64,000 nucleotides of DNA from Planctomycetia bacterium (GTDB taxonomy: Bacteria; Planctomycetota; Planctomycetia; Pirellulales; JACPPG01): NCBI GenBank assembly GCA_016191115.1, contig JACPPG010000005.1, forward strand, positions 23,119 to 87,118. The letters are read 5' to 3'. Shown one piece after another: positions 2-63,242 of this stretch (position 1 is the stretch's first letter; every line of letters begins with the position of its first letter). Under the pieces are notes generated by a model. It did no database searches. It saw only the letters and a program-made list of their open reading frames with translations, and had not been told where the DNA came from. Made by a program: the position numbers and the translations under genes.

Positions 2-3000
2 GCATTTTTCACCGGCGAAACCGCCAGTGGCTGGCAACAAGTCAATCTCGCCACGCCTGTCTACATCCAGGCAAACACCGTCTACATCGTTTCGTACTAC
101 GCCCCCAAGGGGCGCTACTCGGCCGATCGCAACTATTTCGTGTCGCAGGGCATCGATAACGGCCCGCTGCACGGCCTGTCGCAAGGCCCAAGCGGCCCCG
201 ATGGCGTGTTCGTCTACGGCAATAGCGCGTTTCCGACGAACACCTACCAGTCGTCGAACTACTATGTCGACGTCGTGATCAACACGGCCATCGTTAGCGA
301 CACAATGCGGCCCAAGATCATCTCGTACGCGGCCGCGGATGGGTCGAGCGTGCTCACGACGGATTCGTCGATCATCATCAAGTTCAGCGAGGCCCTGAAC
401 GCGGCGTCGGTCAACAGCACGAGCGTGCAACTCTTGAACCCCGATCTCACGAGCATCCCGCCCGGTTGCTGCGGCACGCCCGGTGGCTGGTGCACCGGCT
501 GCCCGTTACTGCAAGCCGCCTCGACGCGGGTCATCAACGCCACGGTCGTCTACGACGCGGTGAACTACACGGTGACGCTGACGCCGACTGCGCCGCTATC
601 CACCCTGCAGACTTACACGGTCTTTTTGAAGAGCGGTTCGCAGGGCGTATACGACGTGGCCGGCAACTCGCTCGCGGCCGATTCCGGCGCCTCGTTCCTC
701 ACACCCTCGCAGCCGGCTTCGACGCGGTCTACAATCTGGCCCACGTCCGCCACGCCCGCCACCGTCGACGTGGGCGAGGCAAAAGCGGTCGAGCTGGGCA
801 CGAAGTTCTACGCCGACACCAGCGGCACCATCGCCGGCATTGAGTTCTACAAGAGCGCCGCCAATACGGGCGTGCACACTGGCAGCCTGTGGTCGGCCAC
901 CGGGCAATTGCTGGCGACCGGCACGTTCACCGGCGAAACGGCCAGCGGCTGGCAACAGCTCACGTTCACCACGCCCGTGGCGGTCACGGCCGGCACCACG
1001 TACGTCGCTTCGTACCACACGGACAGCGGCCGTTTCTCGGTCGACAAGAACTACTTCACCTCGCAATTCAACAGCGGTTTGCTGCACGTTCCGGCCGACG
1101 GTGGCGTGTATCTCTACGGCACGGGCGGCTTCCCGACACAAACCAACCTGTCGAGCAACTATTGGGTGCAGCCGATCCTGCGTACTCCGATCACCACCGA
1201 CAATACGGCGCCGACAATCCTCAGCATCTCGCCGGCGGCCGGCACGACCGGCGTCTCCGTCACTCCGACGATCACCGCGCAGTTCAGCGAGGCGCTCGAT
1301 CCCACGACCGTCAGCACTAACACGCTGCGGCTGATGGACAACAGCAACCAACTGGTGCCCACCAGCGTGACGTACAACGAGCAGACGTTCATGGCGACCA
1401 TCGTGCCGACGTCGGCCTTGTCGTTCGGCGGCATGTACACGATCGTCGTCGCCGGCGGCGCGCAGGGCATTCGCGACATGGCCGGTAACCCGGTCGCCCT
1501 GACTACGGGATCGAGCTTTACCACCGTTGGTGCTCCGGTGCCCGATACGACGCCGCCGATGGTGATCGCGGTCAATCCGGCCAACAATGCCACAGGTTAC
1601 GCGGTGAACGGCGCGATCACGGTCACTTTCAGCGAACCGCTCAATGCCGCCTCGGTCAACGCGGCCAGCGTCATCCTGCTGAAGAACGCCCTGTCGCGGA
1701 TCGTGACGACCGTCACGTACAACGCGGCCAGCAATTCGATCACCATCACGCCCACCGCGCCGCTGGAGTACGGCAGCAACTACACGGTTTATCTTGTCGG
1801 CGGGGTGACGGGCATCCGCGACCTGTCGGACAACGCGATGACGCCGAACTACTCGTCGTCGTTCACGACCGTGGCCGCTCCGCCACCGGCTAGCCTGTGG
1901 AGCACCTCCACGACGCCTGGCACCGTCGACGGCGGCGACACACAGTCGATCGAAGTGGGCGTGAAATTCACGGCCGACTCCAATGGTTACATCATCGGAG
2001 TGCGCTTCTACAAGAGCGCGGCCAACACCGGCACGCACGTCGGCAATCTGTGGTCGGCAAGCGGGCAACTATTGGCCACCGGCACGTACTCCGGTGAGAC
2101 GGCCAGCGGATGGCAGACGCTCACGTTTGCCACGCCCGTCGCGATCACCGCCGGCACTACCTATACGGCATCATATCTGGCGCCGAAGGGGCGTTACGCG
2201 GCCGACACGAACTTCTTCAACGCGCAATTCAACAGCGGACCGCTGCACGTCCCCGCCAGCGGCGGCGTCTATCGGTACGGCGCCACGAGCGGCTTCCCCA
2301 CGAGCACGTTTTCGAAGAACAACTACTGGGTCGACGTGTTGTTCAGCCTCACGCCGCCGGCGGATACCACGCCGCCGACGGTGACCGCCATGTCCCCGGC
2401 CAATGGCGCGACGAACGTCCCGACGAACGTGGCCGCCACGGTGCGGTTCAGTGAGGCGATCAATACCACGTCGCTGTCGAGCAGCACGCTGCAGATCCTG
2501 GACGGCACGACGCTCGTGCCCGCCACGATCACCTACGACGCCAACACGAACACGGCGACGATCGCGCCGGTCAGCCCGTTGGCGAATTCCCGCACCTATA
2601 CGCTGTCGGCGACCGGCGGCATCCCGGGTCTCAAGGACACGTCCGGCAACAACCTGGCGCAGACCACTTCGACGACCTTCACGACGGCCGCCGTCGACGT
2701 GACGGCGCCGACGGTCACTTCGTTCAACCCCACGAATAACGCCAGCAGCGTGGCGACCAGCGCCACGGTAACGGTCACGTTCAGCGAGGCGGTCGATCCC
2801 ACGACCGTCAACGCGACGACCGTGTCGCTGCTCACCAACACGAACGCCGTTATGGCCGCGACGGTTAGCTACAATCCCGCGACCAGCACCGCGACGTTGA
2901 CCCCGACCAGTCCGCTGGCAAACTCCGCCAGCTACACGATCGTCGTGCAGGGTGGGGTGGCCGGCGTGCACGACCTTGCCGGCAACGCCCTGGCCGCGAA

Positions 3001-5044
3001 CGCGACGTCCGCTTTCCAAACCGTCGCTTCATCCAATGGCGGCGGTGGTGGCGGCACTGGTGGCACGACGAGCTCGTCGACGAGCTTGTGGACGACGACC
3101 ACTCCGGCCACGGCCGACGTCGGCGAGCCACAATCACTCGAATTGGGCGTCAAGTTCACTTCCAACGCCAATGGGTACATCACGGGCCTACGCTTCTACA
3201 AGAGCACCGCGAACACCGGCACTCACGTTGGCCACCTGTGGACGAGCTCCGGCCAGTTGTTGGCCACCGCCACGTTCACTGGCGAGACGGCCAGCGGCTG
3301 GCAGCAAGTCACGTTCGCCACGCCCGTAGCGATCACGGCCGGCACGACGTACGTAGCTTCGTACTTTGCCCCGAACGGCCACTTCGCCGTCAATCGCAGC
3401 TACTTCAAGAGCGCGTTCACGAGCGGACAACTGCAAGTCCCCGCCAATGGCGGCGTCTTCATGTATGGTGCGGCAAGCGCCTTCCCGACCCAGACCTACG
3501 GCAGCAGCAACTACTGGGTCGACGTGATGTTGTCGACGGCGCCGCCTGTCGACACGACTGCGCCGACGGTGACCGGTTTCAGCCCGGCCGGCGGCGCGAC
3601 GAACGTCGCCGTCAGTACGCCGATCACGATCACATTCAGCGAGGCGCTTAGCGCGGCTTCGGTCACCACGAGCACCGTGCGCTTGCTGGACGGCGCTACT
3701 CAAGTGGCGGCCACCGTGGCCTACAACGCCGGCAACAACACGGTCACGATCACGCCCACCGCGGCCCTCGCCAACTCGAAGGCGTACACGATTTCTGTCC
3801 TGGGCGGCGCGAGTGGCGTGAAGGACGCGGCCGGCAACGCCCTGGCGCAAACCGCCACGTCCACCTTCACGACCGTCGCGGCGCCGCCTGTCGATACGAC
3901 TGCGCCGACGGTGACCGGTTTCAGCCCGGCCGGTGGTGCGACAAGCGTCGCCGTCAATACGGCGATCACGGTGACATTCAGCGAAGCGCTTAGCGCGGCT
4001 TCGGTCACCACGAGCACCGTGCGGTTGCTGGACGGCAGCACGCAGGTGGCTGCCACCGTGGCCTACAATGCCGCGAATAACACCGTCACCGTCACGCCCA
4101 CCGCGGCCTTGGCCAACTCGAAGGCCTACACGATTTCTGTCCTGGGCGGCGCGAGTGGCGTGAAGGACGCGGCCGGCAATGCCCTGGCACAAACGGCCAC
4201 GTCGACCTTCACCACGGTCGCGGCAACGCCTCCCGACACGACTCCGCCCACCGTGACCGGTTTCAGCCCGGCCAGTGGCGCGACGAACGTCGCCATCAAC
4301 ACGGCGGTCACGGTGACGTTCAGCGAAGCGCTTAGCGCGGCCTCGGTCACCACGAGCACTGTCCGGCTGCTGGACGGTGCCACTCAGGTGGCGGCCAGCG
4401 CGTCCTACAACGCCACGAATAAGACGGTCACCATCACGCCCACGGCGGCCCTGGCCAACTCGAAGGTCTATACGATCTCGGTTGTGGGCGGCTCGGCAGG
4501 CGTGAAGGACGCGGCCGGCAATGCCTTGGCGCAGACCGCCACGTCGACCTTTACCACCGTCGCGGCGCCCGTCACGACGTCGAGCCTGTGGAGCGCTTCG
4601 ACGACGCCGAAGACAGTCGACGTCGGCGAGCCGCAAGCCATCGAGTTGGGCGTCAAGTTCACCGCCGACGTCAATGGCTACATCACGGGCATACGGTTCT
4701 ACAAGAGTTCGGCCAACACCGGCACGCACATCGGGAACCTGTGGAGCAGCACGGGCCAGCTTTTGGCCACGGCCACCTTCACCAACGAAACCGCTAGCGG
4801 CTGGCAGCAAGTCACTTTCTCGACGCCGGTGGCGGTCACGGCGGGCACGACGTACGTGGCCTCGTACTATGCACCCAACGGGCGCTTCTCGGTGAATCGC
4901 AACTACTTCGGCAGCGCGTTCACGAGCGGCCTGCTGCGCGTGCCCGCTAGCGGCGGTGTCTTTAAGTACGGCTCGTCGAGTGCATTCCCCGACCAGACGT
5001 TTAACGCCAGCAACTACTGGGTGGACGTGGTGTTCTCAAGCTAG
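2..5044 (+). CDS. Giant exported repeat protein (5' end outside window) with alternating DUF4082 domains and bacterial Ig-like (SbsA/Big_5-type) domains
   Basis: The frame of the 140..5044 ORF stays open back to nt 2. AFFTGETASGWQQV...YYAPKGRYSADRNYF is the tail of a further DUF4082 unit, so the listed start at 140 is internal. Five DUF4082-like units are present (..KF.....GYI.G.RFYKS.ANTG.H.G.LW...GQLLA...F.GETASGWQ..TF..PV....GTTY.ASY......). They are separated by 1-3 Ig-like units (DTT.PTV....P..GATNV......TFSEA...ASV...TV.LL). Stop at 5042-5044. Confidence 0.9.
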   Translation, partial: AFFTGETASGWQQVNLATPVYIQANTVYIVSYYAPKGRYSADRNYFVSQGIDNGPLHGLSQGPSGPDGVFVYGNSAFPTNTYQSSNYYVDVVINTAIVSDTMRPKIISYAAADGSSVLTTDSSIIIKFSEALNAASVNSTSVQLLNPDLTSIPPGCCGTPGGWCTGCPLLQAASTRVINATVVYDAVNYTVTLTPTAPLSTLQTYTVFLKSGSQGVYDVAGNSLAADSGASFLTPSQPASTRSTIWPTSATPATVDVGEAKAVELGTKFYADTSGTIAGIEFYKSAANTGVHTGSLWSATGQLLATGTFTGETASGWQQLTFTTPVAVTAGTTYVASYHTDSGRFSVDKNYFTSQFNSGLLHVPADGGVYLYGTGGFPTQTNLSSNYWVQPILRTPITTDNTAPTILSISPAAGTTGVSVTPTITAQFSEALDPTTVSTNTLRLMDNSNQLVPTSVTYNEQTFMATIVPTSALSFGGMYTIVVAGGAQGIRDMAGNPVALTTGSSFTTVGAPVPDTTPPMVIAVNPANNATGYAVNGAITVTFSEPLNAASVNAASVILLKNALSRIVTTVTYNAASNSITITPTAPLEYGSNYTVYLVGGVTGIRDLSDNAMTPNYSSSFTTVAAPPPASLWSTSTTPGTVDGGDTQSIEVGVKFTADSNGYIIGVRFYKSAANTGTHVGNLWSASGQLLATGTYSGETASGWQTLTFATPVAITAGTTYTASYLAPKGRYAADTNFFNAQFNSGPLHVPASGGVYRYGATSGFPTSTFSKNNYWVDVLFSLTPPADTTPPTVTAMSPANGATNVPTNVAATVRFSEAINTTSLSSSTLQILDGTTLVPATITYDANTNTATIAPVSPLANSRTYTLSATGGIPGLKDTSGNNLAQTTSTTFTTAAVDVTAPTVTSFNPTNNASSVATSATVTVTFSEAVDPTTVNATTVSLLTNTNAVMAATVSYNPATSTATLTPTSPLANSASYTIVVQGGVAGVHDLAGNALAANATSAFQTVASSNGGGGGGTGGTTSSSTSLWTTTTPATADVGEPQSLELGVKFTSNANGYITGLRFYKSTANTGTHVGHLWTSSGQLLATATFTGETASGWQQVTFATPVAITAGTTYVASYFAPNGHFAVNRSYFKSAFTSGQLQVPANGGVFMYGAASAFPTQTYGSSNYWVDVMLSTAPPVDTTAPTVTGFSPAGGATNVAVSTPITITFSEALSAASVTTSTVRLLDGATQVAATVAYNAGNNTVTITPTAALANSKAYTISVLGGASGVKDAAGNALAQTATSTFTTVAAPPVDTTAPTVTGFSPAGGATSVAVNTAITVTFSEALSAASVTTSTVRLLDGSTQVAATVAYNAANNTVTVTPTAALANSKAYTISVLGGASGVKDAAGNALAQTATSTFTTVAATPPDTTPPTVTGFSPASGATNVAINTAVTVTFSEALSAASVTTSTVRLLDGATQVAASASYNATNKTVTITPTAALANSKVYTISVVGGSAGVKDAAGNALAQTATSTFTTVAAPVTTSSLWSASTTPKTVDVGEPQAIELGVKFTADVNGYITGIRFYKSSANTGTHIGNLWSSTGQLLATATFTNETASGWQQVTFSTPVAVTAGTTYVASYYAPNGRFSVNRNYFGSAFTSGLLRVPASGGVFKYGSSSAFPDQTFNASNYWVDVVFSS
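3539..4564 (+). repeat. Three tandem 342-bp (114-codon) near-identical Ig-like domain repeats inside the giant protein gene
   Basis: Units start at 3539, 3881 and 4223 (GCGCCGCCTGTCGA.ACGACTGCGCCGACGGTGACCGGTTTCAGCCCGGCC...). By eye they are roughly nine-tenths identical at the nucleotide level, much closer than the other Ig-like units. Confidence 0.9.
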
Positions 5045-10476: not shown

Positions 10477-12666
10477 TCAACGCGGCAGGTTCCACCGCAC
10501 GACTTCGACGTGCGTCATATTGTCCGCGCCGCGGTAGGAATAGCTGGTCACCAGCGCGCCGTCTGTGAGCTGCACGGTGGGACCGAAGCCGCCACCCTGG
10601 GCCTGGCCGGCTGGCGTCTTGGCGTCGAGGACAAGCCGATCCTTGGCAAAGTCGAATGCGAAGCCATCGAGTGTTTCCTTGCCAAGCAAAGCGCGCACGC
10701 CCAGCGGCGGCTTCAGGTCGCGGACCGTGTACGTCAGCAGCAAGCGCTTATCACCCAGCCGCAAAAGCGACATGTACATTTCGCCATAGTCGCCAAAGTC
10801 GCGGTCCCGATCGAACGTGCGCCCCTCGTCGCTCGATGAGAAAAGGATGAAGTGATCGCTCTGGTCGTTGCCCGCCGCGATGGGTCGACCCGCGATGGGC
10901 AATTCGTTGCTGTCCACGCGGACAAAGGCCCACACCTTGCCGGATTGGGCCTGCCACAGCCAGGTCTCGCCGCCGAAGAAGCCGTAGACGCTTTTGAAGT
11001 CGCCCGGCTGGCACGGCCGATTCCGTTCCCACGTTGCTCCCCGGTCGCCAGAGCGCCACACGAAGTACGGCCCGCCTCCGCCGTCGTAGTCGACGCCCAG
11101 CAATAACGTGCCGTCGGACAGCTCGAGCACGTTGCGCGACGTGTGATTCGCGGCCTTCGGTTTGACGTCCTCCGATTCGACGCGGGTGGTGCTCCACGTT
11201 CGGCCGCGGTCAGCGGATCGATGCACAAAGCCGGTCGTGTATCCCCATGGGTTCCGCACGTCGGTCGCCAGCAGATGCCCGGTGATGAAGATCGTGCCGT
11301 CGCGCAGCATGGTAAGGTACGGCTCTCGCCCCAACAGGTCGAGCTTGTCCGGCCCCGTCCACGTCCGCCCGCCGTCCTTGGAGCGGAAGAGCAGCGTCTG
11401 CTCCAGAACCTTGTTGCCGTCGCGCTTGTGTTGGTGAAAACAGGTCAGCCAGAGCTCCCCGTCCGGCAGCAAGGCGATGCACGGTTTGTAGTCGTCGGGC
11501 TCGCCGAGGGGGACTCTTTCGCAGGGAAGCGAGTCGAACGCGAGCGCGCCGCGCGCCTGGACGGCGATCGGCTCGCTCGTCGCGCCGTCGCGCGACGTCT
11601 CACCGCATTTCTTCTTCCAAGCGGGATAGTCCTCTTCGAGGAGCCGGCGCGGACGATCGCTATACCATCCGTAGCCATTGCGGCGCTCGTAGCCGATTAG
11701 AGACAGGTCGTACTTTGCCGCGCCATCGCGATCCACGAAGATCGGCCGGTTGGTGCCGATCTCGTAAAACCGGGCCCACAGCGGCGGCGCAGCCGCGTCT
11801 TTGACGACGATTTTGTTTTTTCCGGTGGGCGACTTCTCGTCCGGCTCTTCGATCTGGCGGATGCCTTGCAGCCGGGCGTCCTTGAACCAGGCCACCGCCC
11901 CCTCGATGGCCCGCACAACTTCGTCGCTTGGCGAATCCAGGCTCATCAAGAGCCGCACGATCTCGACCGACTCGCTGCCGCTGAGACTCACCAGTTCGTA
12001 GCTGCGCGCGGGGCGAGGGCGAAAGTCGTTCTCGTCGTGCTGCGCACACCACGCGGTCAGCTTCCCGTCGACCTTGACCTGGCATTTGAGAATGCACTGG
12101 ACGCCCCGATCGAAGGCCTGCCCCGCCGCGGCCCTTCGCGGCTCATCGACGAAGTCGTACATCGGCAACGTGCGAATCTCACGCGCCAGTTGCATGAGGC
12201 GCACCATGGCGTTGTCGTTGAACGTGATGTGGCGAGCATAGCCGCCGCCTGGTGGAAATCGTTGGGGCCATCCACCGTTGGGATATTGTGCCTTGAGGAT
12301 GTATTCCAGCCCCTTGTCGAAGGTCTTGCGGTCGCGCTCGTCCTTCGCGGCGCGGTAGGAACGGGCCAAAAAACGTAGCTCGTCGGTCGTAGCGCCATTG
12401 TCGAACGTCGGTGGCGACGCCTGCTGTTCGGATTGCAACTTCCACGTCGTGTCGACATTCTTGGGCCAGCCCCCCACGTCGGATTGATGGGCGCGAATGT
12501 TCGCGGCGATTTGCTGGGCCTCCGTGCCGGCGAACCAATCATCGGTGTTCCGCAAGTATTGCCCAGGCCCCGTTGCGGCGCCGGCGGAATCGGAAGCGGC
12601 CAAAAGAAGAACGGCAGCCAGCACACGACCGATGGGTCGAAGAGAAGTCGCCAGGCGGGGCTTCAT
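10477..12666 (-). CDS. Fusion protein: PL10-type pectate lyase (PelA/Pel-15E-like) N-terminal half plus BNR/Asp-box sialidase-like beta-propeller C-terminal half
   Basis: Signal peptide MKPRLATSLRPIGRVLAAVLLLAASDSAGA from ATG 12666; the listed GTG at 12690 lies in the repeat flank. The N-terminal half has YILKAQYPNGGWPQRFPP....ITFNDNAM, typical of pectic acid lyase. The C-terminal half has four Asp-box motifs (SKDGGRTW, SADRGRTW, SGDRGATW, SSDEGRTF). Confidence 0.8.
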   Translation of the reverse strand: MKPRLATSLRPIGRVLAAVLLLAASDSAGAATGPGQYLRNTDDWFAGTEAQQIAANIRAHQSDVGGWPKNVDTTWKLQSEQQASPPTFDNGATTDELRFLARSYRAAKDERDRKTFDKGLEYILKAQYPNGGWPQRFPPGGGYARHITFNDNAMVRLMQLAREIRTLPMYDFVDEPRRAAAGQAFDRGVQCILKCQVKVDGKLTAWCAQHDENDFRPRPARSYELVSLSGSESVEIVRLLMSLDSPSDEVVRAIEGAVAWFKDARLQGIRQIEEPDEKSPTGKNKIVVKDAAAPPLWARFYEIGTNRPIFVDRDGAAKYDLSLIGYERRNGYGWYSDRPRRLLEEDYPAWKKKCGETSRDGATSEPIAVQARGALAFDSLPCERVPLGEPDDYKPCIALLPDGELWLTCFHQHKRDGNKVLEQTLLFRSKDGGRTWTGPDKLDLLGREPYLTMLRDGTIFITGHLLATDVRNPWGYTTGFVHRSADRGRTWSTTRVESEDVKPKAANHTSRNVLELSDGTLLLGVDYDGGGGPYFVWRSGDRGATWERNRPCQPGDFKSVYGFFGGETWLWQAQSGKVWAFVRVDSNELPIAGRPIAAGNDQSDHFILFSSSDEGRTFDRDRDFGDYGEMYMSLLRLGDKRLLLTYTVRDLKPPLGVRALLGKETLDGFAFDFAKDRLVLDAKTPAGQAQGGGFGPTVQLTDGALVTSYSYRGADNMTHVEVVRWNLPR

Positions 12667-12697
12667 GCTGAATCTTTCGCTATTTGGCACGTGGCCC

Positions 12698-12854
12698 CAG
12701 GGCCGTTCACAGATTCAAGCTTGCCGGCGGCGCACCGGCGGGAAAGTGGGACAGGCACCGAGACGCAACGCCCGTCTGAAAGGACTTGCGCTGTTTATGC
12801 TCGGAGCCAGTCCCATTTTCCCGCCTCGCCATTTTGAAAAACAGAATGGCCCTG
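12698..12854 (+). mobile_element. 157-bp MITE-like element, copy A
   Basis: CAGGGCCGTTCACAG...CAGAATGGCCCTG, near-identical to five other copies. The flanking 10-mers are CACGTGGCCC (12688-12697) and CACCTGCCCC (12855-12864), 8 of 10 identical. Confidence 0.85.
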
Positions 12855-13028
12855 CACCTGCCCCCAACACGCTTGACGCGGATATGAATGATGACAGACG
12901 GCGTGCGACGAGGCAACGTGGCGGGACAGCGTCGGCGCCCGGCCTCCAGGCGCGCGGGACCCTGGTCGTCTACGGGCGCAGTAGCCGTGCCGCGGCATCC
13001 TCGACGGCCGGCGTAATCGAACAACGAC

Positions 13029-14594
13029 TCAGCGATCCGTGGCGCCGTGGGGCAACGAATCGGCACTCAACCGCCGGGCATTGATCACCCAGTCGCCCGG
13101 CTGAAGTGGCGGTGGCGATTGCTCGCGCGGGACGTTGATGAACTCGGCGTTTCGGAACGCCGGCAACCTGTCGGGCGCGACTTCGCGCACTGCCAGCCCG
13201 GTCATTCCCTTCGTGACCCAGTAGCAGCCGGCGCTCGAGGCGCCGAACTCGTCGTAGACGAAACGCCTGGCGACCGGCTTGTCGGCATCCGGCATGACGA
13301 AGACGACGCGCCGCGGCTCAGGCGGACCGTTTCTGGCGGCCTGTTCGACATCGGCACAGATCGCGTCCCACTCGATCCGCGACGGGACGAAGAAGTAATT
13401 GTGCAAGTGATAGCGCGTCAGTACGAAGGCGATGCCGACGGCGCATGCCAGCCCTACGCCGGCCACTCGTTGCCTCCCCTGCCCGTCCGTCATCAGCCGC
13501 CGCAAGTATCCCGACGTTGCCAGAATAAGGAGAAACAGGATCGTGACGCCGATGGCCGCCCTCGTGCGCAGCGGGAAGTGATCGGACGCGATCACCAGGT
13601 TAGGAACGTACGATACCGGAATCAGGGCCATTAGCGCGGCGATGCGTAGGGCACGGCTTGACCGCGACCCCTCTAAACGCAGCCAAAGACCAATGGGCAC
13701 GAAGATGCCCAGGATGCACAGTTCCACGGGAAGCATCTGCCACTTCTCCCAGTGATCGACGAAGAAGTACGGAATGCAAGACTGTCCTACCGGCTGGAGT
13801 ACGAACCGGCCCGCCTTCTTGACCAGGTTCGTGGCGAGTTCCGCCCGCGACGCGATGTCGATGTTCCGCACTTCGTGGACCATCAGCTTGAACGTCAAAA
13901 AGCTTGCGCCCAATGCGGCGACGAGGACTGCCGCGTGGATTTCCCATCGCAGGATTTGCCGGCGGGACCCGCCCCCCTGGGCGGCCACGGCCATCACGAG
14001 CATCGTGACATAGAACATGGCCGCCGGCTGATAAATGGAGAAGGCGACAAACAACACTCCGGCGGCCGCCAGGCCCAGAACTGCGGACTGCCAGACTTTA
14101 TCCCGCCGGCTGCTGGCCACCGCCAGCCAGAACGCCGTCATCGCCGTCAGGCAGGAGTATGCAAAGGCGGCGCATGTGGCCCATACCGCGTAGACGTTGA
14201 ACGTCGGCAGCAGCGCGGTCAGCGACGCGACCGCGACCGCCAGCAGCCACGAGTACTTGAGTCGCCGCAGGGACGCGTAAATTCCGACGACGAGGAGATA
14301 GATGCCGACCAGGGAGGCCAGTCGTGGCCGCCACAAGTCGCCAACGGACTCGGCGCCGTACCACGTCGCTTGAAAGATCAATCCGCTGGCCCATCGTCCC
14401 GCGGCATTCCAGATTTCCAAGACAGGCACGGGCTCCCACAGCAGCCAGTAGTCGTCCCGGTGAGCAACCATACCGGTGAGGCAAACAGAATATGCTCCGA
14501 AGACCGTCGCGGCCAGCAACAATGCCGCGATGACGTGCCCACGCAAGGCGCCGCGGTTTGGTATGGTGGTGTCGGCGGTGGCTCTGGTGGTCAT
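13029..14594 (-). CDS. Polytopic membrane protein, GT-C/GtrC-like putative glycosyltransferase
   Basis: About 12 predicted TM helices followed by a C-terminal soluble domain. Last gene of an operon with a GtrB-like GT2 and a methyltransferase. The ATG at 14594 overlaps the upstream stop (ATGA). The family assignment is an inference from topology and context. Confidence 0.6.
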   Translation of the reverse strand: MTTRATADTTIPNRGALRGHVIAALLLAATVFGAYSVCLTGMVAHRDDYWLLWEPVPVLEIWNAAGRWASGLIFQATWYGAESVGDLWRPRLASLVGIYLLVVGIYASLRRLKYSWLLAVAVASLTALLPTFNVYAVWATCAAFAYSCLTAMTAFWLAVASSRRDKVWQSAVLGLAAAGVLFVAFSIYQPAAMFYVTMLVMAVAAQGGGSRRQILRWEIHAAVLVAALGASFLTFKLMVHEVRNIDIASRAELATNLVKKAGRFVLQPVGQSCIPYFFVDHWEKWQMLPVELCILGIFVPIGLWLRLEGSRSSRALRIAALMALIPVSYVPNLVIASDHFPLRTRAAIGVTILFLLILATSGYLRRLMTDGQGRQRVAGVGLACAVGIAFVLTRYHLHNYFFVPSRIEWDAICADVEQAARNGPPEPRRVVFVMPDADKPVARRFVYDEFGASSAGCYWVTKGMTGLAVREVAPDRLPAFRNAEFINVPREQSPPPLQPGDWVINARRLSADSLPHGATDR

Positions 14595-15499
14595 GACGTT
14601 GGGCCCTGTGATTCCGCCTCTGCCCGCGACGGCCCGCATGAAAGCGAAGCACGCTTTTGCGCGGCCACAAACATGATGTCCCCCGAGTTCACCCACATGC
14701 CCATGCGATTCTGGCCGCCGATGGGAATGAGCCGGCTTATTGCCGAGGCAGCGCTATGCGTGAACCCCTTTCGCAACGCCGTCAGGCTCGACAGGACGCT
14801 ATGAAGAGTTCGATAGACGCTGATGGCCTTGGCCTCCACGATGGCAAAGCCGTGCCTGGCCAAGAACTGCGTCATGGTCCGGCGCGAGAAGTATTGTAGA
14901 TGCGTCGGCGGGTGAATCATGCGCCAGCGGCGGCCGCGCAGGCGCGCGAGCGGCGAGCCGACATCGCCCGTCGTCAGAAAGAGCCAACCGCTGGGCGGCA
15001 AAAGCCTTTCAATGCGTTCGACGACAAGATCGGGACGCGGCAAATGCTCGATCGTGTCCCACAAGCAATAGGCTTGATACTCTCCCGCCGCGATTGGTGA
15101 AGTCAAGAAATCGCCCACGATGACCCGCTGCCCAAGCTCGCTCGCGGCGTGCGCGACCGCCTCGCCGCAGACGTCAATTCCCGCTGCTCGCGCGCCGTGC
15201 GCCGAGGCGTACTCCAGAAACAGCCCGTACGCGCAGCCGATTTCGAACACGGTGTTGACGTCGTCGGCCAGCCGCCGCATGTCCCGCCAGCGGGCGGCGA
15301 AGTTTTGCACGTGAACCTGCCGATCAGCGAGATAGTCGCCGTACTCTTGCCCGAAGAAATAGGCCTCGGTGTAGATTCCGGTCGCGGCGGCAGGCGTCGG
15401 TAATTCCGCGGCACGCATGAAACCGCAGTTCCGACACCGGCAGAGTATCTGCCAGCGAGGTTCCCAGTCTTGGGTCCCGCAGACGATGCACGAAATCAT
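14591..15499 (-). CDS. Class I SAM-dependent methyltransferase with N-terminal Cys4 zinc ribbon
   Basis: CIVCG....CRCRNCGF ribbon. SAM motif I VFEIGCAYGLF. The remaining motifs are consistent with the Methyltransf_11/23 type. Confidence 0.8.
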   Translation of the reverse strand: MISCIVCGTQDWEPRWQILCRCRNCGFMRAAELPTPAAATGIYTEAYFFGQEYGDYLADRQVHVQNFAARWRDMRRLADDVNTVFEIGCAYGLFLEYASAHGARAAGIDVCGEAVAHAASELGQRVIVGDFLTSPIAAGEYQAYCLWDTIEHLPRPDLVVERIERLLPPSGWLFLTTGDVGSPLARLRGRRWRMIHPPTHLQYFSRRTMTQFLARHGFAIVEAKAISVYRTLHSVLSSLTALRKGFTHSAASAISRLIPIGGQNRMGMWVNSGDIMFVAAQKRASLSCGPSRAEAESQGPTS

Positions 15500-15502
15500 C
15501 CG

Positions 15503-16552
15503 TCAGCCCTCGGCGCGCCGTTTGTTGCCCACGGTCGCCGGCCGGTGATCGGCATCTCCCGTCGCGTCTTCGGAGCGGGTTTGCTTCGGTGACGGCTCCT
15601 TCAGCAGGTATAGCGGCCGCTGTTTCGCCTCCTCGTAGACCACGGCAAGGTATTCTCCCAAAAGGCCCGTGAACGTGAGCTGCACGCCGCCGAGTATCAA
15701 GATGACGGAGATCGTGGAGGTCCAGCCCGGCTCGATGCGCTTGAAGAATAACCAGGCCGTTAGAATGTAGATCAGGTAGGCAAACCCAGCCGCCGAGACG
15801 AGCAGGCCCACCCGCGTCGCCATTCGCAAGGGCGCGGAGGAAAATGAGATCACTGCCGCCATGGCCAGGCGGAACATCTTGGCCAGGCCGTAGGAGCTCC
15901 TTCCCGCGAACCGAGGCGGCGCCTCGAAGGGGACAAACGTCCGGTTGTATCCGATCCAAGAGACGATCCCGCGCAGAAACCTCTGCCGCTCGCGCACCGC
16001 GAGCAGCGCCTGGTGCGCTCGCCGCGAGAGCAGGCAAAAGTCCGCCACCCCAGGCACAACGTAGGTGTCGCTGAGCAGATTGATGAGCCGATAGAAGATC
16101 CCGGAAGTCGCCGTCTTCCACCACGACGCGCCGCGCGTCGACTGGCGAACGGCGGAAACAATATCCGCCCCAGCCTGCCAGCGGGCCACCAAGTCGGGAA
16201 TCAGCGACGGCGGATGCTGCAAGTCGGCGTCCATCATGATGACGGCGTCGCCGTCGGCAGCATCCAAACCGGCGGTCAAGGCGATTTGATGTCCAAAGTT
16301 TCGCGACAGCGAAATGACGCGGACGGCTGGATCTTCTCGGGAAAGTTCCTCCAAAACCCGCGGCGTGGCATCGCTGCTGCCGTCGTCCACGAGCACAATC
16401 TCGCTTTGGCAATCCGCAAGACCTGCAAGCGTCTGTCGCAACGCTTCATGAAACCGCCGCAATCCGGCGGCCTCGTTGTAACACGGGGCGACAATGCACA
16501 GCTTGTAAACACCACCGGGAGAACGAGCGGCGGCGGTCCCGTCAGCAAACAT
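15503..16552 (-). CDS. GT2 polyprenyl-phosphate glycosyltransferase (GtrB/ArnC/DPM1-like)
   Basis: KLCIVAPCYNE, VLVDDGSSD, IMMDADLQHPP, and two C-terminal TM helices, as in bactoprenol glucosyl/4-amino-arabinose transferases. Confidence 0.85.
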   Translation of the reverse strand: MFADGTAAARSPGGVYKLCIVAPCYNEAAGLRRFHEALRQTLAGLADCQSEIVLVDDGSSDATPRVLEELSREDPAVRVISLSRNFGHQIALTAGLDAADGDAVIMMDADLQHPPSLIPDLVARWQAGADIVSAVRQSTRGASWWKTATSGIFYRLINLLSDTYVVPGVADFCLLSRRAHQALLAVRERQRFLRGIVSWIGYNRTFVPFEAPPRFAGRSSYGLAKMFRLAMAAVISFSSAPLRMATRVGLLVSAAGFAYLIYILTAWLFFKRIEPGWTSTISVILILGGVQLTFTGLLGEYLAVVYEEAKQRPLYLLKEPSPKQTRSEDATGDADHRPATVGNKRRAEG

Positions 16553-17715
16553 GGAGCGGGCCTATGGCGGCCGACCGTGAGGGAAGAGCGGGCAACAAAT
16601 GGCTGCTTTGAGTTTAGTCGGCCCAGGAGACGGAGCCAACCGAACTGTCCGGCGACTTGCCCAGGGCCGTTCACAGATTCAAGCTTGCCGGCGGCGCACC
16701 GGCGGGAAAGTGGGACAGGCACCGAGACGCAGCGTTGGTATGAAAGGGCTTGCGCTGTTTGTGCTCGGAGCCAGTCCCATTTTCCCGCCTCGCCATTTTG
16801 GCCCTTCCCGTCCGGCGGCCGGCGGCGGCGGTCTTCGTTCGGGCGATCGATTCGGCCCTCGGCACCGCGATCTTCGAGGGCCGCCCTGTTCTTGCGGAAT
16901 TCGTGGCGGAACCACAGGCGGCGCAATTCGACTTGCATCTCGTCATAGGGCAGGCTCAACAGCCGCGACCGTTCCTCGTCGCGAACCTCCTCTTTGAGGA
17001 ACTGCTGCAGTTCCTCCTCGCTCGGCCGGCGCAGGCCTGCGAACTGCTTTCCTGGCCCTCCATGCCGCCGCGCTTGCTCAAACCAGCTCCACAAAAGCTT
17101 CGCGCGCTCCGACGGCTTTTCCGCCTTGTCCAGCTTGTCTTGTGCCTCGGCCGAGAGTGACTCGCGCAACTGCTGCAAGGCCGCACGATCTTCGGGTGAC
17201 GGGCCAGGACGGGCTCCCTCCGGCTGCCGGGCCTGCCACCGCTTTCGCATGAAGTCGTGCTTCAGGAACCAGGCCTCGATCGCCTCCAAATCCTGGGGGC
17301 TCAGCTTGTTGGCCTGGCGGCGGCGCTGCGCTTCGAGAATCTTGTCGATCTTCTTCAGCCGCTCCGCTGGCTCAAGCGATGCCAGGTCCGCGCGGTCCCC
17401 GGGCGGCAGCTCGCTGAGCCAGTCGTGATAGTTCTGCATCACCTTCCGCAGGTCGTCCTTGTCCGCGGCCGTGTCCAAGTCGTCATTCAACCGGCGCAGG
17501 CGGTCCTGCTGCGCGGGGTCGAGCCGCTGGAAGCGCTGGAAGTTCTGCGACAGCCGCTCCTTCTCCTCCTCATCGGCTTGAGCGAGCCGGGCCCGACGCT
17601 CGGGCGTACCATCCGCGCCCGCGGCCGGCAGGGCCCACGTCAGGACGGCGGCCACGGCAGTCAGCGACCCAAGGACAAACGACGCCGCACGAAGTTTGGC
17701 ATGTCTAGCGATCAT
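16276..17715 (-). CDS. Exported coiled-coil/Arg-Glu-rich protein of the ECF operon (DUF3106-like); C-terminus apparently extended by read-through into MITE copy B
   Basis: A signal anchor (LGSLTAVAAVLTWALPAAGA) is followed by a charged helical region with RW/LSP..R repeats down to about nt 16806. Downstream of that point the frame runs through the repeat element, then overlaps the start of the GT2 gene by 277 nt before the first stop at 16276. The native coding part is probably 16806-17715. Confidence 0.6.
   Translation of the reverse strand: MIARHAKLRAASFVLGSLTAVAAVLTWALPAAGADGTPERRARLAQADEEEKERLSQNFQRFQRLDPAQQDRLRRLNDDLDTAADKDDLRKVMQNYHDWLSELPPGDRADLASLEPAERLKKIDKILEAQRRRQANKLSPQDLEAIEAWFLKHDFMRKRWQARQPEGARPGPSPEDRAALQQLRESLSAEAQDKLDKAEKPSERAKLLWSWFEQARRHGGPGKQFAGLRRPSEEELQQFLKEEVRDEERSRLLSLPYDEMQVELRRLWFRHEFRKNRAALEDRGAEGRIDRPNEDRRRRPPDGKGQNGEAGKWDWLRAQTAQALSYQRCVSVPVPLSRRCAAGKLESVNGPGQVAGQFGWLRLLGRLNSKQPFVARSSLTVGRHRPAPCLLTGPPPLVLPVVFTSCALSPRVTTRPPDCGGFMKRCDRRLQVLRIAKARLCSWTTAAAMPRRGFWRNFPEKIQPSASFRCRETLDIKSP
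16662..16805 (+). mobile_element. 157-bp MITE-like element, copy B (3' end rearranged)
   Basis: Same sequence as copy A, but 12 nt (AAAAACAGAATG) are missing before the terminal GGCCCT and no clean flanking duplication is present. It lies inside the 3' part of ORF 16276..17715. Confidence 0.8.
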
Positions 17716-20889: not shown

Positions 20890-21010
20890 TTCGTGCCGTT
20901 TCCAGGCGAGAAGAAGGTCTGATGATGCCGCAATCGACATGGTCCCGCCGCATGCCGGCAAGCCTACCTTACCGGCTGAAACCGCGATTTCAAGCGGGCC
21001 CGGCGCCTGC

Positions 21011-21167
21011 CAGGGCCATTATGTTTTTCAAAATGGCGAGGCGGGAAAATGGGACTGGCTCCGAGCAGAAACAGCGCAAGTCCTTTCAGACCAACGTTGC
21101 GTCTCGGTGCCTGTCCCACTTTCCCGCCGGTGCGCCGCCGGCAAGCTTGAATCTGTGAACGGCCCTG
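21011..21167 (-). mobile_element. 157-bp MITE-like element, copy C (inverted orientation)
   Basis: The reverse complement matches copies A/D/E/F end to end. The flanking 10-mers CGGCGCCTGC and TGTCGCCCGC are 7 of 10 identical. Confidence 0.85.
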
Positions 21168-21305
21168 TGTCGCCCGCCAAACCCGCCCGTGCAAGCACGG
21201 GAAAGCCCGATCGCTGTTAACGGAAATGTAACGGCCGTCCGGCCGGCGGCCAGCGTAGCTTATGGATAGGGGCAACGAGGTCGGAAACCAAGAGGAGGAC
21301 GGGCC

Positions 21306-23656: not shown

Positions 23657-23745
23657 CGGGAGGGCGAGGCTCCTGCCGAGCCGCAGCCGCGAAAGACGTC
23701 GTTTTCGTCCCGGCTCGGCAGGAGCCTCGCCCAGCTTCGCCCTCC
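23657..23745. repeat. GC-rich palindromic repeat, GGGAGGGCGAGGCTCC.GCCGAGCCG family, copy 1
   Basis: The left arm at 23657-23682 pairs with CGGCTCGGCAGGAGCCTCGCC at 23710-23730. The right arm carries an extra CAGCTTCGCCCTCCC. Confidence 0.8.
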
Positions 23746-32149: not shown

Positions 32150-32287
32150 GATCGAATCCCTTTGTTCTTTGCGTGGAAAAACGGCGGATCCGTTGGCGCG
32201 CCGCACAAAACACCGGCGCGCGAGGCCCGAAGGACCAGCAGTATCCGATAAAACAAGAGGCGCTTCAAGCGGCGGGAGGAGCAATTG

Positions 32288-32444
32288 CAGGGCCGTTCAC
32301 AGATTCAAGCTTGCCGGCGGCGCACCGGCGGGAAAGTGGGACAGGCACCGCGACGCAACGTTGGTCTGAAAGGACTTGCGCTGTTTATGCTCGGAGCCAG
32401 TCCCATTTTCCCGCCTCGCCATTTTGAAAAACAGAATGGCCCTG
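32288..32444 (+). mobile_element. 157-bp MITE-like element, copy D
   Basis: Full-length copy flanked by a perfect 11-bp direct repeat AGGAGCAATTG (32277-32287 and 32445-32455). Confidence 0.9.
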
Positions 32445-32732
32445 AGGAGCAATTGGCGAACCGTAGGGTGCTCTGCGAGCACCGGAGGTCCGATCTTGTG
32501 CGCACAGTGCACACAACACCGCCCGTGGCGGCCGTCTGCGAGCCGCTAGTGGCCGTGCCTACCACCGCTGGAACCGGAAGCGAACGACCGGCGTAGCCAT
32601 CTTCGATTTGCCCCAGACGCGTGCCCGCGCTCGCGACGACCACACGTCGCTCACCGGGTTTCCCTGGATGTAGCTGCAGGGCGCTCTGCGAGGACCTGCG
32701 CGTCCGCGCGATTCCGGTGTCCGCAGGACACC

Positions 32733-33171: not shown

Positions 33172-33263
33172 CGGGAGGGCGAGGCTCCCGCCGAGCCGAA
33201 CTCTTTGAGTGATTAGATCGACGTCAATTGTAGCGCCGGCTCAGCAGGAGCTTCGCCCTCCCG
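33172..33263. repeat. GC-rich palindromic repeat, GGGAGGGCGAGGCTCCCGCCGAGCCG family, copy 2
   Basis: The left arm 33172-33198 pairs with the right arm 33236-33263 (three mismatches, 37-nt spacer). The right arm overlaps the last codons of cutA. Confidence 0.8.
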
Positions 33264-35700: not shown

Positions 35701-35771
35701 AGAGGCCGGTGGGAGTCGAACCCACTTTGACCGGGTTGCAGCCGGTTGCCGGGCCGTCTGGCTCCAGCCTC
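35701..35771 (-). tRNA. tRNA-Cys (anticodon GCA)
   Basis: The minus strand reads GAGGCTG GA GCCAGACGGCCCGGC A ACCGG CTGCAAC CCGGT CAAA GTGGG TTCGACT CCCAC CGGCCTC T. It has a 7-bp acceptor stem (one G-U), a CU-GCA-AC anticodon loop, a TTCGACT T-loop and the U73 discriminator typical of tRNA-Cys. CCA is not encoded. Confidence 0.85.
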
Positions 35772-38228: not shown

Positions 38229-38293
38229 CGAGAGGACGCCGCACGTCACCTTCCCCGAGCGGGGGCATTGGCTCGCGCCAGCGCGTCCCCGCC

Positions 38294-38450
38294 CTGGGCC
38301 GTTCACAGATTCAAGCTTGCCGGCGGCGCACCGGCGGGAAAGTGGGACGGGCACCGAGACGAAACGTTGGTCTGAAAGGGCTTGCGCTGTTTATGCTCGG
38401 AGCCAGTCCCATTTTCCCGCCTCGCCATTTTGAAAAACAGAATGGCCCTG
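38294..38450 (+). mobile_element. 157-bp MITE-like element, copy E
   Basis: Full-length copy whose first bases are CTGGGCC instead of CAGGGCC. It is flanked by a perfect 10-bp direct repeat CGTCCCCGCC (38284-38293 and 38451-38460). Confidence 0.9.
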
Positions 38451-38567
38451 CGTCCCCGCCACGTTTGCTCGTCGCGGGCGATCGGCCGAGTTACAATAGC
38501 AGCATCGTTCGCCACGGCCGGCACGGCGATCGATTCTCAACCGGACCCTCTATCGCGCGGGCATAGC

Positions 38568-42969: not shown

Positions 42970-43126
42970 GACTGCGCCAGCGTAATTGAACTGCCGTTCG
43001 AGGGTGGGAAGCTCCCGCAAATTCGAGGCATGATCCCCGGCCGCGGCCGAACTTATGGCGGGGTAGGGGCGGAACGTCCATCATCGCCTGTTCTGGCCGT
43101 AAAGACAAGAAAGGGACCACCCGAGA

Positions 43127-43283
43127 CAGGGCCGTTCACAGATTCAAGCTTGCCGGCGGCGCACCGGCGAGAAAGTGGGACAGGCACCGAGACGCAACGT
43201 TCGTCTGAAAGGACTTGCGCTGTTTATGCTCGGAGCCAGTCCCATTTTCCCGCCTCGCCATTTTGAAAAACAGAATGACCCTG
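43127..43283 (+). mobile_element. 157-bp MITE-like element, copy F
   Basis: Full-length copy flanked by a perfect 10-bp direct repeat CCACCCGAGA (43117-43126 and 43284-43293). Confidence 0.9.
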
Positions 43284-43345
43284 CCACCCGAGATACCCTC
43301 GCGGCAGGGCTTTTTAGCCCATTTTTCCCGGTCCGCCGGCGTCGC

Positions 43346-60515: not shown

Positions 60516-60588
60516 CGGGAGGGCGAGGCTCCCGCCGAGCCGTGGCGTCAGCAAGAAGGCACGGCTCGGCGGGAGCCTCGCCCTCCCG
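60516..60588. repeat. GC-rich palindromic repeat, GGGAGGGCGAGGCTCCCGCCGAGCCG family, copy 3 (perfect)
   Basis: CGGGAGGGCGAGGCTCCCGCCGAGCCGTG (60516-60544) pairs with CACGGCTCGGCGGGAGCCTCGCCCTCCCG (60560-60588) across a 15-nt loop. It lies between egtB and the ABC ATPase gene. Confidence 0.85.
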
Positions 60589-63214: not shown

Positions 63215-63242
63215 GCGGCTCGGCGGGAGCCTCGCCTTCCCT
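63215..63242. repeat. Solo arm of the GGGAGGGCGAGGCTCCCGCCGAGCC palindrome family
   Basis: GGCGGCTCGGCGGGAGCCTCGCCTTCCC has no partner arm nearby. It lies just after the DUF427 stop. Confidence 0.65.

Follow-up and report, generated by a model that had tools for sequence, protein, structure and literature searches.

A dispersed 157-bp palindromic element with ISAs1-like termini, probably a MITE, in an uncultured planctomycete

Introduction

Insertion sequences of the ISAs1 family have terminal repeats of 14–22 bp that begin with CAGGG, and their insertion gives a 10-bp direct repeat (PMC11946415). At the other end of the size range are short dispersed repeats that form hairpins. The Correia/nemis, ERIC and RUP elements are co-transcribed with their neighbours and fold into long RNA hairpins; the Bacillus bcr1 and Neisseria nemis MITEs are likewise transcribed, and bcr1 shows compensatory changes (PMC3184786). 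That transposons can seed regulatory stem-loops is an idea already established in other bacteria. The literature searched contained no report of MITEs from Planctomycetota and none of MITEs derived from ISAs1.

Here we analyze a 157-bp element that is repeated in a 64,000-nt stretch of planctomycete DNA, referred to below in its full length as the window. The element is small, it has inverted ends, it is flanked by duplications of fixed length, and it occurs as dispersed, near-identical copies; it follows that the element is to be classed as a MITE. Our proposal, which we hold to be very probably correct, is that it is a MITE moved by a DDE transposase whose gene lies elsewhere in the genome and which most likely belongs to the ISAs1 family, and that the hairpin follows from the palindromic architecture of the element. 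The initial annotation had suggested a mobile structured RNA. The mobility and the stable hairpin are upheld, the latter for either strand, but the inverted ends and 10–11-bp duplications make the mobility that of a DNA transposon.

Six Copies of the Element in the Window

The six copies counted in the initial annotation are all placed, five on the + strand and one on the − strand. When the copies are aligned together with their flanks, they are found to have common, sharp boundaries, CAGGGCCGTT...AATGGCCCTG, in unrelated gene contexts, and the mean identity among the six is 97%. The copies are spaced 4–16 kb apart among housekeeping genes, without a cassette array. With genes called from codon-position GC and Pfam, all six copies lie 31–157 nt upstream of the likeliest start codon of a gene transcribed away from the element.

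Copy A (12698–12854, + strand) is 31 nt upstream of the ATG at 12666 of a minus-strand pectate-lyase gene, and this ATG opens a signal peptide. Copy B (16662–16807, +) has lost 11 nt close to its right end. It occupies the 3′ end of a real gene on the minus strand and is 109 nt upstream of the ATG, at 16552, of a GT2 gene. Copy C (21011–21167, −) is the sole inverted copy in the window and is found about 70 nt upstream of a minus-strand gene for an M3-type peptidase. In copy D (32288–32444, +), the hairpin is tipped by GAAA, and the change A64C is found in this copy alone. Copy E (38294–38450, +) lies between two plus-strand genes, 65 nt past the stop codon of a gene for a Tad/VWA protein. Copy F (43127–43283, +) lies between divergent genes and has two stem changes, G44A and G152A, both of which create A.C on the + strand.

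An open reading frame on the minus strand, 16276–17715, runs through copy B and overlaps the next gene. Its coding signal is real only upstream of copy B, where GC3 is 0.81; GC3 is then about 0.6. In the frame of this ORF, the A100G change of copy B abolishes a stop codon that is present in the intact copies.

No coding capacity was found in the element. Its six-frame translations match no protein family, only the tails that the element itself has given to six proteins of the same genome: the frame-0 peptide has no match in the protein collection, and the other five frames, searched as a concatenate, gave the six proteins.

Two further features of the window are recorded here. A very long ORF at 2–5044 on the + strand, open at the start of the window, consists of ~342-nt tandem repeats and of larger units of about 1.2 kb, and it probably encodes a repetitive surface or adhesin-like protein. 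A tRNA gene at 35701–35771 on the − strand is the only match at the Rfam gathering level.

Ends and Target-Site Duplications

Each terminal inverted repeat consists of CAGGGCC(G/A)TTC, five unmatched bases and TTCAA, and the outermost bases of the element are CAGGGCC…GGCCCTG. In every intact copy, CAGGGCCGTTC...TTCAA pairs with CAGGGCCATTC...TTCAA at both ends. The left terminal repeat of copy D (32288–32308, + strand) is CAGGGCCGTTCACAGATTCAA, and the right one (32424–32444) reads CAGGGCCATTCTGTTTTTCAA on the other strand. The two match at 15 of 21 positions, including 10 of the outer 11. These repeats are presumed to be the ends that a transposase binds. Neither solo element ends nor a transposase were found in the window.

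Three copies are bordered by perfect direct duplications. For copy D the duplication is 11 bp, AGGAGCAATTG, with 11/11 identity between the left (32277–32287) and right (32445–32455) sides. The duplications are 10 bp for copy E (CGTCCCCGCC, 38284–38293 and 38451–38460) and for copy F (CCACCCGAGA, 43117–43126 and 43284–43293). A 10/10 match at the spacing of the element is found at 3.5e-5 of random window positions. Decayed duplications border copies A and C. In copy A, CACGTGGCCC at 12688–12697 and CACCTGCCCC at 12855–12864 agree at 8 of 10 bp, and in copy C the segments 21001–21010 and 21168–21177 agree at 7 of 10. Copy B, a terminally deleted copy, has no recognisable target duplication in its flanks.

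The hexamers TTGAAT and TTGAAA, which are −35-like and face outward, lie 15 nt from each terminus (12698–12718, 12834–12854 and the equivalent segments of the other copies). A −35-like hexamer near the terminus is the geometry that IS elements use to form hybrid promoters. No convincing −10 element follows the terminal TTGAAT/TTGAAA in the flank of any copy.

Copies Elsewhere in the Genome and Searches beyond It

At least six more copies are present on six other contigs of the same Planctomycetia bacterium MAG, where they form element-derived tails of annotated proteins, here P0121 to P0126. These proteins, with locus tags beginning HYX69_, and the window proteins MBI2823292/3, encoded on a 90.7-kb contig, belong to the same MAG by exact look-up. 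Proteins MBI2824409, MBI2825336 and MBI2826212 are also of this MAG. The annotations are a Ser/Thr kinase, an ABC transporter permease, a DUF5615 PIN-like protein and three hypothetical proteins. The element-derived peptides are near-identical, form the ends of these proteins or lie within them, and are chimeric or spurious C-termini that arose from MITE insertions.

Nucleotide changes in these six copies were inferred from amino-acid differences, each of which leaves a unique or near-unique nucleotide change. The P0121 tail covers element positions 13–153 and has no visible change. P0122 covers positions 2–157, and the inferred changes are C105T, G63A, A100G, A87G and C79A; a duplication is seen in this protein as DPPN...DPPN, which is probably 11 bp in the DNA. 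P0123 (positions 13–156) has an inferred G77A and a loop change at 142 or 144. P0124 and P0125 both cover positions 18–137, with C69A and A87G inferred for the former and A87G, T129G and a transversion at 48 or 50 for the latter. P0126 (positions 2–85) has an inferred G35C. P0124 and P0125 share the point at which they cease to resemble the element, left of position 18; P0126 ceases to resemble it right of position 85. These three may be truncated or rearranged copies, or they may belong to a subfamily with a different left end. The variants 87G, 79A, 100G and 69A are common to copies on different contigs, which points to subfamilies derived from different master copies.

The arrangement between copies A and B is also present in sample SRR12113392. 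A Logan contig of that sample (L073, 3859 bp) corresponds to window positions ~12829–16687 and carries the GT2 and methyltransferase genes. One end of the contig lies 26 nt inside copy A and the other equally deep, 26 nt, in copy B, as a multi-copy repeat would cause in a short-read assembly. Thus, the MITE copies account both for assembly breaks at these sites and for the near-identical spurious tails on the kinase, the ABC permease, the PIN-like protein and the hypothetical proteins.

Searches in other collections gave no further copies. The 16-mer GGCGGGAAARTGGGAC, run against a 596-Gb genome collection, is too short a pattern: it gave 72 chance matches, none of which has the element by blastn. 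Neither of two metagenome scans, of which the first used a 26-mer from the inner arms and the second a degenerate 30-mer for either terminus, found anything, nor did one scan of viral sequences, and blastn against plasmid and phage collections gave no match. The initial annotation had also called for a covariance-model search in other Planctomycetota, and no relatives appeared in about 95 kb of the nearest Pirellulales loci plus three planctomycete contigs. For the flanking Tad/VWA protein, the closest homologues are proteins of Pirellulales MAGs that are only ~55% identical.

The Hairpin and Its Possible Maintenance

Both the hairpin and the repetition of the element are far beyond chance. 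The long bulged hairpin described in the initial annotation is confirmed by folding. As + strand RNA, copy D has a predicted energy of −81.3 kcal/mol (z = −6.25), and none of 200 shuffled sequences folds as well; as − strand RNA the energy is −71.4 kcal/mol (z = −4.6). In most copies the + RNA is more stable by about 10 kcal/mol, copy F being an exception in which the − strand RNA is the more stable. Folded as DNA, the two strands are equal, at −40.6 and −40.1 kcal/mol. The element is one long imperfect palindrome throughout, and a hairpin would be expected from such an architecture on either strand.

The helices listed earlier are all found in the family consensus. The reading of them fails for copy D itself, which has GGCACCGCG rather than GGCACCGAG; its A64C change adds a C.U mismatch at pair 64–104. 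The GAAA tip is invariant in 6/6 window copies. The two wobble pairs noted earlier are indeed confined to one strand, but the count is three, as U80.G85, which closes the GAAA loop, had been missed. The fixed wobbles of the consensus are therefore G8.U150, G49.U119 and U80.G85, along with a mismatch, A60.A108. In the 49-pair structure, 95.2% of the cells are paired on the + strand versus 88.2% on the mirrored − strand. The mirrored structure has no wobble at the three fixed sites, and the minimum-energy fold of the − strand has three G.U pairs at other sites.

Substitutions among the copies are concentrated at the apex. Of the 17 substitutions in the six window copies, 11 fall in columns 66–100, where 3.8 are expected (P = 2e-4; P = 2e-3 if the triple change in copy A is taken as a single event). 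This bears out the earlier remark on clustering: the concentration of differences at the apex and at position 100 is real. The outer ~65 nt of each arm are the best conserved, and conservation falls to its minimum at the center of the palindrome. There are no compensatory pairs among the six window copies, which, being 97% identical, give no power to detect them. One is seen outside the window: in the P0122 copy, as inferred from the protein, the pair G63–C105 has become A–U. In a simulation that placed the observed numbers of substitutions randomly, one or more such changes appeared in 4–6% of trials.

Together, the apical clustering and the compensatory change hint that more than transposition keeps the stem intact. 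They fit an RNA structure and a DNA structure equally well and do not separate the two. The new A–U pair is Watson–Crick on both strands, and a DNA-level explanation is equally good.

What might maintain the stem as DNA is either intrastrand template switching, by which a quasi-palindrome could transfer a mutation between its arms, or the need of transposition-competent master copies for intact subterminal arms, in which case new copies would derive from masters whose arms are intact. We regard such an explanation as possible, though not probable. It accommodates the equal folding of the two DNA strands, the conservation of the outer ~65 nt of the arms over the palindrome center and the symmetry between the arms of the double change G63A plus C105T; the occurrence of 87G, 79A, 100G and 69A on different contigs, indicative of subfamilies derived from masters, is also as expected. 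Template switching is put forward here as a conjecture, though, and the double change is a single one with a chance of ~0.05. DNA-level maintenance also leaves the one-strand bias of the fixed mismatched transitions (3/3) unexplained, though these are not significant.

The Candidate Transposase

The termini point to ISAs1. CAGGG ends were verified on seven annotated ISAs1-family elements, and CAGGG ends together with perfect 10-bp duplications were found in 5/5 elements of the family: ISAs1 of Aeromonas, ISPa60 of Klebsiella, and elements of Tistrella, Azotobacter and Rhodococcus. The ends of the E. coli H-repeat (yhhI) are CAGGGAAAGATC and CAGGGCAAGATT. In comparison with the ISAs1 elements sampled, the likeness of the ends of the 157-bp element stops at CAGGG(C). 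A tblastn search of the window with nine ISAs1 transposases gave nothing significant. An ISAs1-type transposase is, from the termini and duplications, the probable candidate for mobilisation. The relationship is not that of a simple internal-deletion derivative, because ISAs1 terminal repeats span 14–22 bp and the element is palindromic throughout.

Another family with duplications of 10–12 bp, for example the IS231, ISH8 or IS4Sa subgroups of IS4, might have moved the MITE instead, but we consider this unlikely. Members of the IS4 subgroups make duplications of 8–13 bp and have ends that begin with CA, as tabulated in ISfinder. The 10–11-bp duplications of the element are in that range, its ends agree with those of the ISAs1 elements examined only in CAGGG(C), and a parent element was not found in the window. 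To our knowledge, the ends of the IS4 subgroups are CAT or CT and not CAGGG. Against an IS4-type transposase, then, stands the combination of CAGGG termini with a 10-bp duplication, which is the hallmark of ISAs1 (PMC11946415) and which held in all five of the intact ISAs1-family elements.

With an ISAs1-type transposase as the preferred candidate, a simple course of events can be proposed. A DDE transposase encoded elsewhere and acting in trans would recognise the CAGGGCC(G/A)TTC...TTCAA ends, would excise or copy the element, and would integrate it by cuts staggered by 10 bp, occasionally 11. Repair of the staggered cuts would yield the flanking direct duplications. The insertions are found in short intergenic leaders, 31–157 nt before start codons, and in the 3′ ends of genes, and those at 3′ ends make chimeric C-terminal tails. 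A copy that is co-transcribed with its neighbour would place a very stable stem-loop in the RNA, which could change the stability or the translation of the mRNA. Such an effect on host RNA appears to be incidental rather than selected on one strand. We infer the mobilising transposase, both its existence and its identity, as well as the mobilisation in trans and the effects on RNA, from these features of the copies. Because the copies are near-identical and have intact duplications, they suggest that an ISAs1-like transposase was recently active in this uncultured planctomycete lineage.

Is the Hairpin Selected as RNA from One Strand?

The initial annotation had proposed that selection acts on an RNA transcribed from the strand with the G.U pairs. 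In this proposal the hairpin would be a regulatory, processing or protein-binding module, and transposition would be only its vehicle. The analysis does not support it.

The asymmetry itself is the first point. The three fixed G.U pairs are all on one strand, and the + RNA is more stable by some 10 kcal/mol in most copies, as RNA selection would have it. The fixed wobbles are identical in all copies, so they are inherited and must be counted once, as 3:0 (two-sided p = 0.25). A bias of three out of three inherited sites is within chance, and in copy F the − RNA is the more stable.

Changes that have arisen among the copies are the second point; a comparison of G.U with A.C among copies had been advised, and the new transitions in the stem are balanced, two of + type to three of − type. 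New G.U on the + strand is found at position 71 (copy B) and at position 87 (copies B and E, P0122, P0124 and P0125), of which the latter reads as a subfamily polymorphism in the sequences compared. New A.C on the + strand, which forms a wobble only on the − strand, is found at 44 and 152 (copy F) and at 77 (P0123).

The third point is the orientation of the copies. Transcription of the flanking genes would give the proposed strand in only 4 of the 11 scorable copies (C, E, P0124 and P0125) and the opposite strand in 7 (A, B, D, P0121, P0122, P0123 and P0126). The orientation of the twelfth copy, F, is ambiguous, as it lies between divergent genes. Scanning copy D and its surroundings for consensus signals turned up neither a sigma-70-type promoter nor an intrinsic terminator. 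The scan of the window at the Rfam gathering threshold matched a tRNA and not the element, and a permissive Rfam scan restricted to the element yielded nothing but miRNA-hairpin noise below threshold. Nor does folding as DNA set the two strands apart, at −40.6 versus −40.1 kcal/mol.

Other observations agree with selection on RNA: the invariance of the GAAA tip in all six window copies, the avoidance of the long stems by substitutions (P = 2e-4), and the compensatory change from G–C to A–U at pair 63–105 in one copy, with a chance of ~0.05. The last is Watson–Crick on both strands. There is also precedent in the transcribed bcr1 and nemis MITEs and in the compensatory changes of bcr1 (PMC3184786). 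Weighing these points, we judge selection of the hairpin as RNA from the G.U strand to be very doubtful. The same low likelihood attaches to its more specific form, in which a mobile RNA module, such as an RNase processing site, an mRNA stabiliser or an sRNA precursor, would have been spread into leaders by ISAs1-type transposition with the G.U strand as the functional one. With 12 mostly near-identical copies, statistical power is low, so the data fail to support a strand-specific RNA role but do not refute it. Were the hairpin indeed selected as RNA, the element would be another case, like bcr1 or Correia, of a transposon seeding regulatory stem-loops in leaders.

A long and imperfect palindrome that has extrahelical bases and whose fold differs between the strands also brings to mind a REP/BIME palindrome moved by RAYT, an IS200/IS605-derived palindrome or an integron attC site, all of which depend on hairpins in single-stranded DNA, but these readings are scarcely credible and are rejected: such systems lack the 10-bp target duplications and the CAGGG inverted ends, whereas the 157-bp element has 10–11-bp duplications and symmetric CAGGG inverted ends; REPs measure 20–40 bp (PMC3733652); and the near-identical copies lie 4–16 kb apart among housekeeping genes, with no cassette array.

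Comparison with Known Systems

The preferred reading, a MITE moved by an ISAs1-like transposase, adds modestly to the catalogue of MITEs, which are themselves an ordinary kind of element. Its likenesses are several. Like REP and BIME sequences, the element is a GC-rich, intergenic palindrome that forms a hairpin. REPs are 20–40 bp long, lack target duplications and are tied to RAYT transposases, in contrast to an element of 157 bp with duplications.

The window holds a second, unrelated family of palindromic repeats, REP-like in appearance and placed at the ends of genes or between them (23662–23732, 33177–33258, 60516–60588 and 63217–63237). Its arms are GGGAGGGCGAGGCTCC(C/T)GCCGAGCC and GGCTCGGC(G/A)GGAGCCTCGCCCTCCC, with a variable loop of ~20–40 nt between them. 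The family surfaced as weak covariance-model matches, and seven arm matches were found versus 0.04 expected.

In size, the 157-bp element is like Correia/nemis of Neisseria, ERIC of enterobacteria and RUP of pneumococcus, all of which are intergenic inverted-repeat MITEs of 100–160 bp. In those elements the duplications are TA or otherwise short, and other transposases move them; none among them is known to have CAGGG ends or a 10-bp duplication.

The bcr1 element of the Bacillus cereus group, a MITE of ~155 bp, is similar in size, and it too is dispersed, bordered by direct repeats and able to form a stable RNA fold. The direct repeats of bcr1 are 5 bp, its fold is a two-stem, cruciform-like one, and its sequence and host phylum are unrelated to those of our element. 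Compensatory changes are described for bcr1 (PMC3184786), as against one, inferred, for the element.

Turning to the ISAs1 family, the differences are of size and content: the element has 157 bp and no transposase gene, compared with 1.2–1.6 kb for members of the family. Some of its duplications are 11 bp, and there is no sequence similarity past CAGGG(C). What the element has in common with ISAs1, ISPa60 and ISEc1/H-repeat is the same CAGGG termini, imperfect inverted repeats of ~20 bp and a 10-bp duplication.
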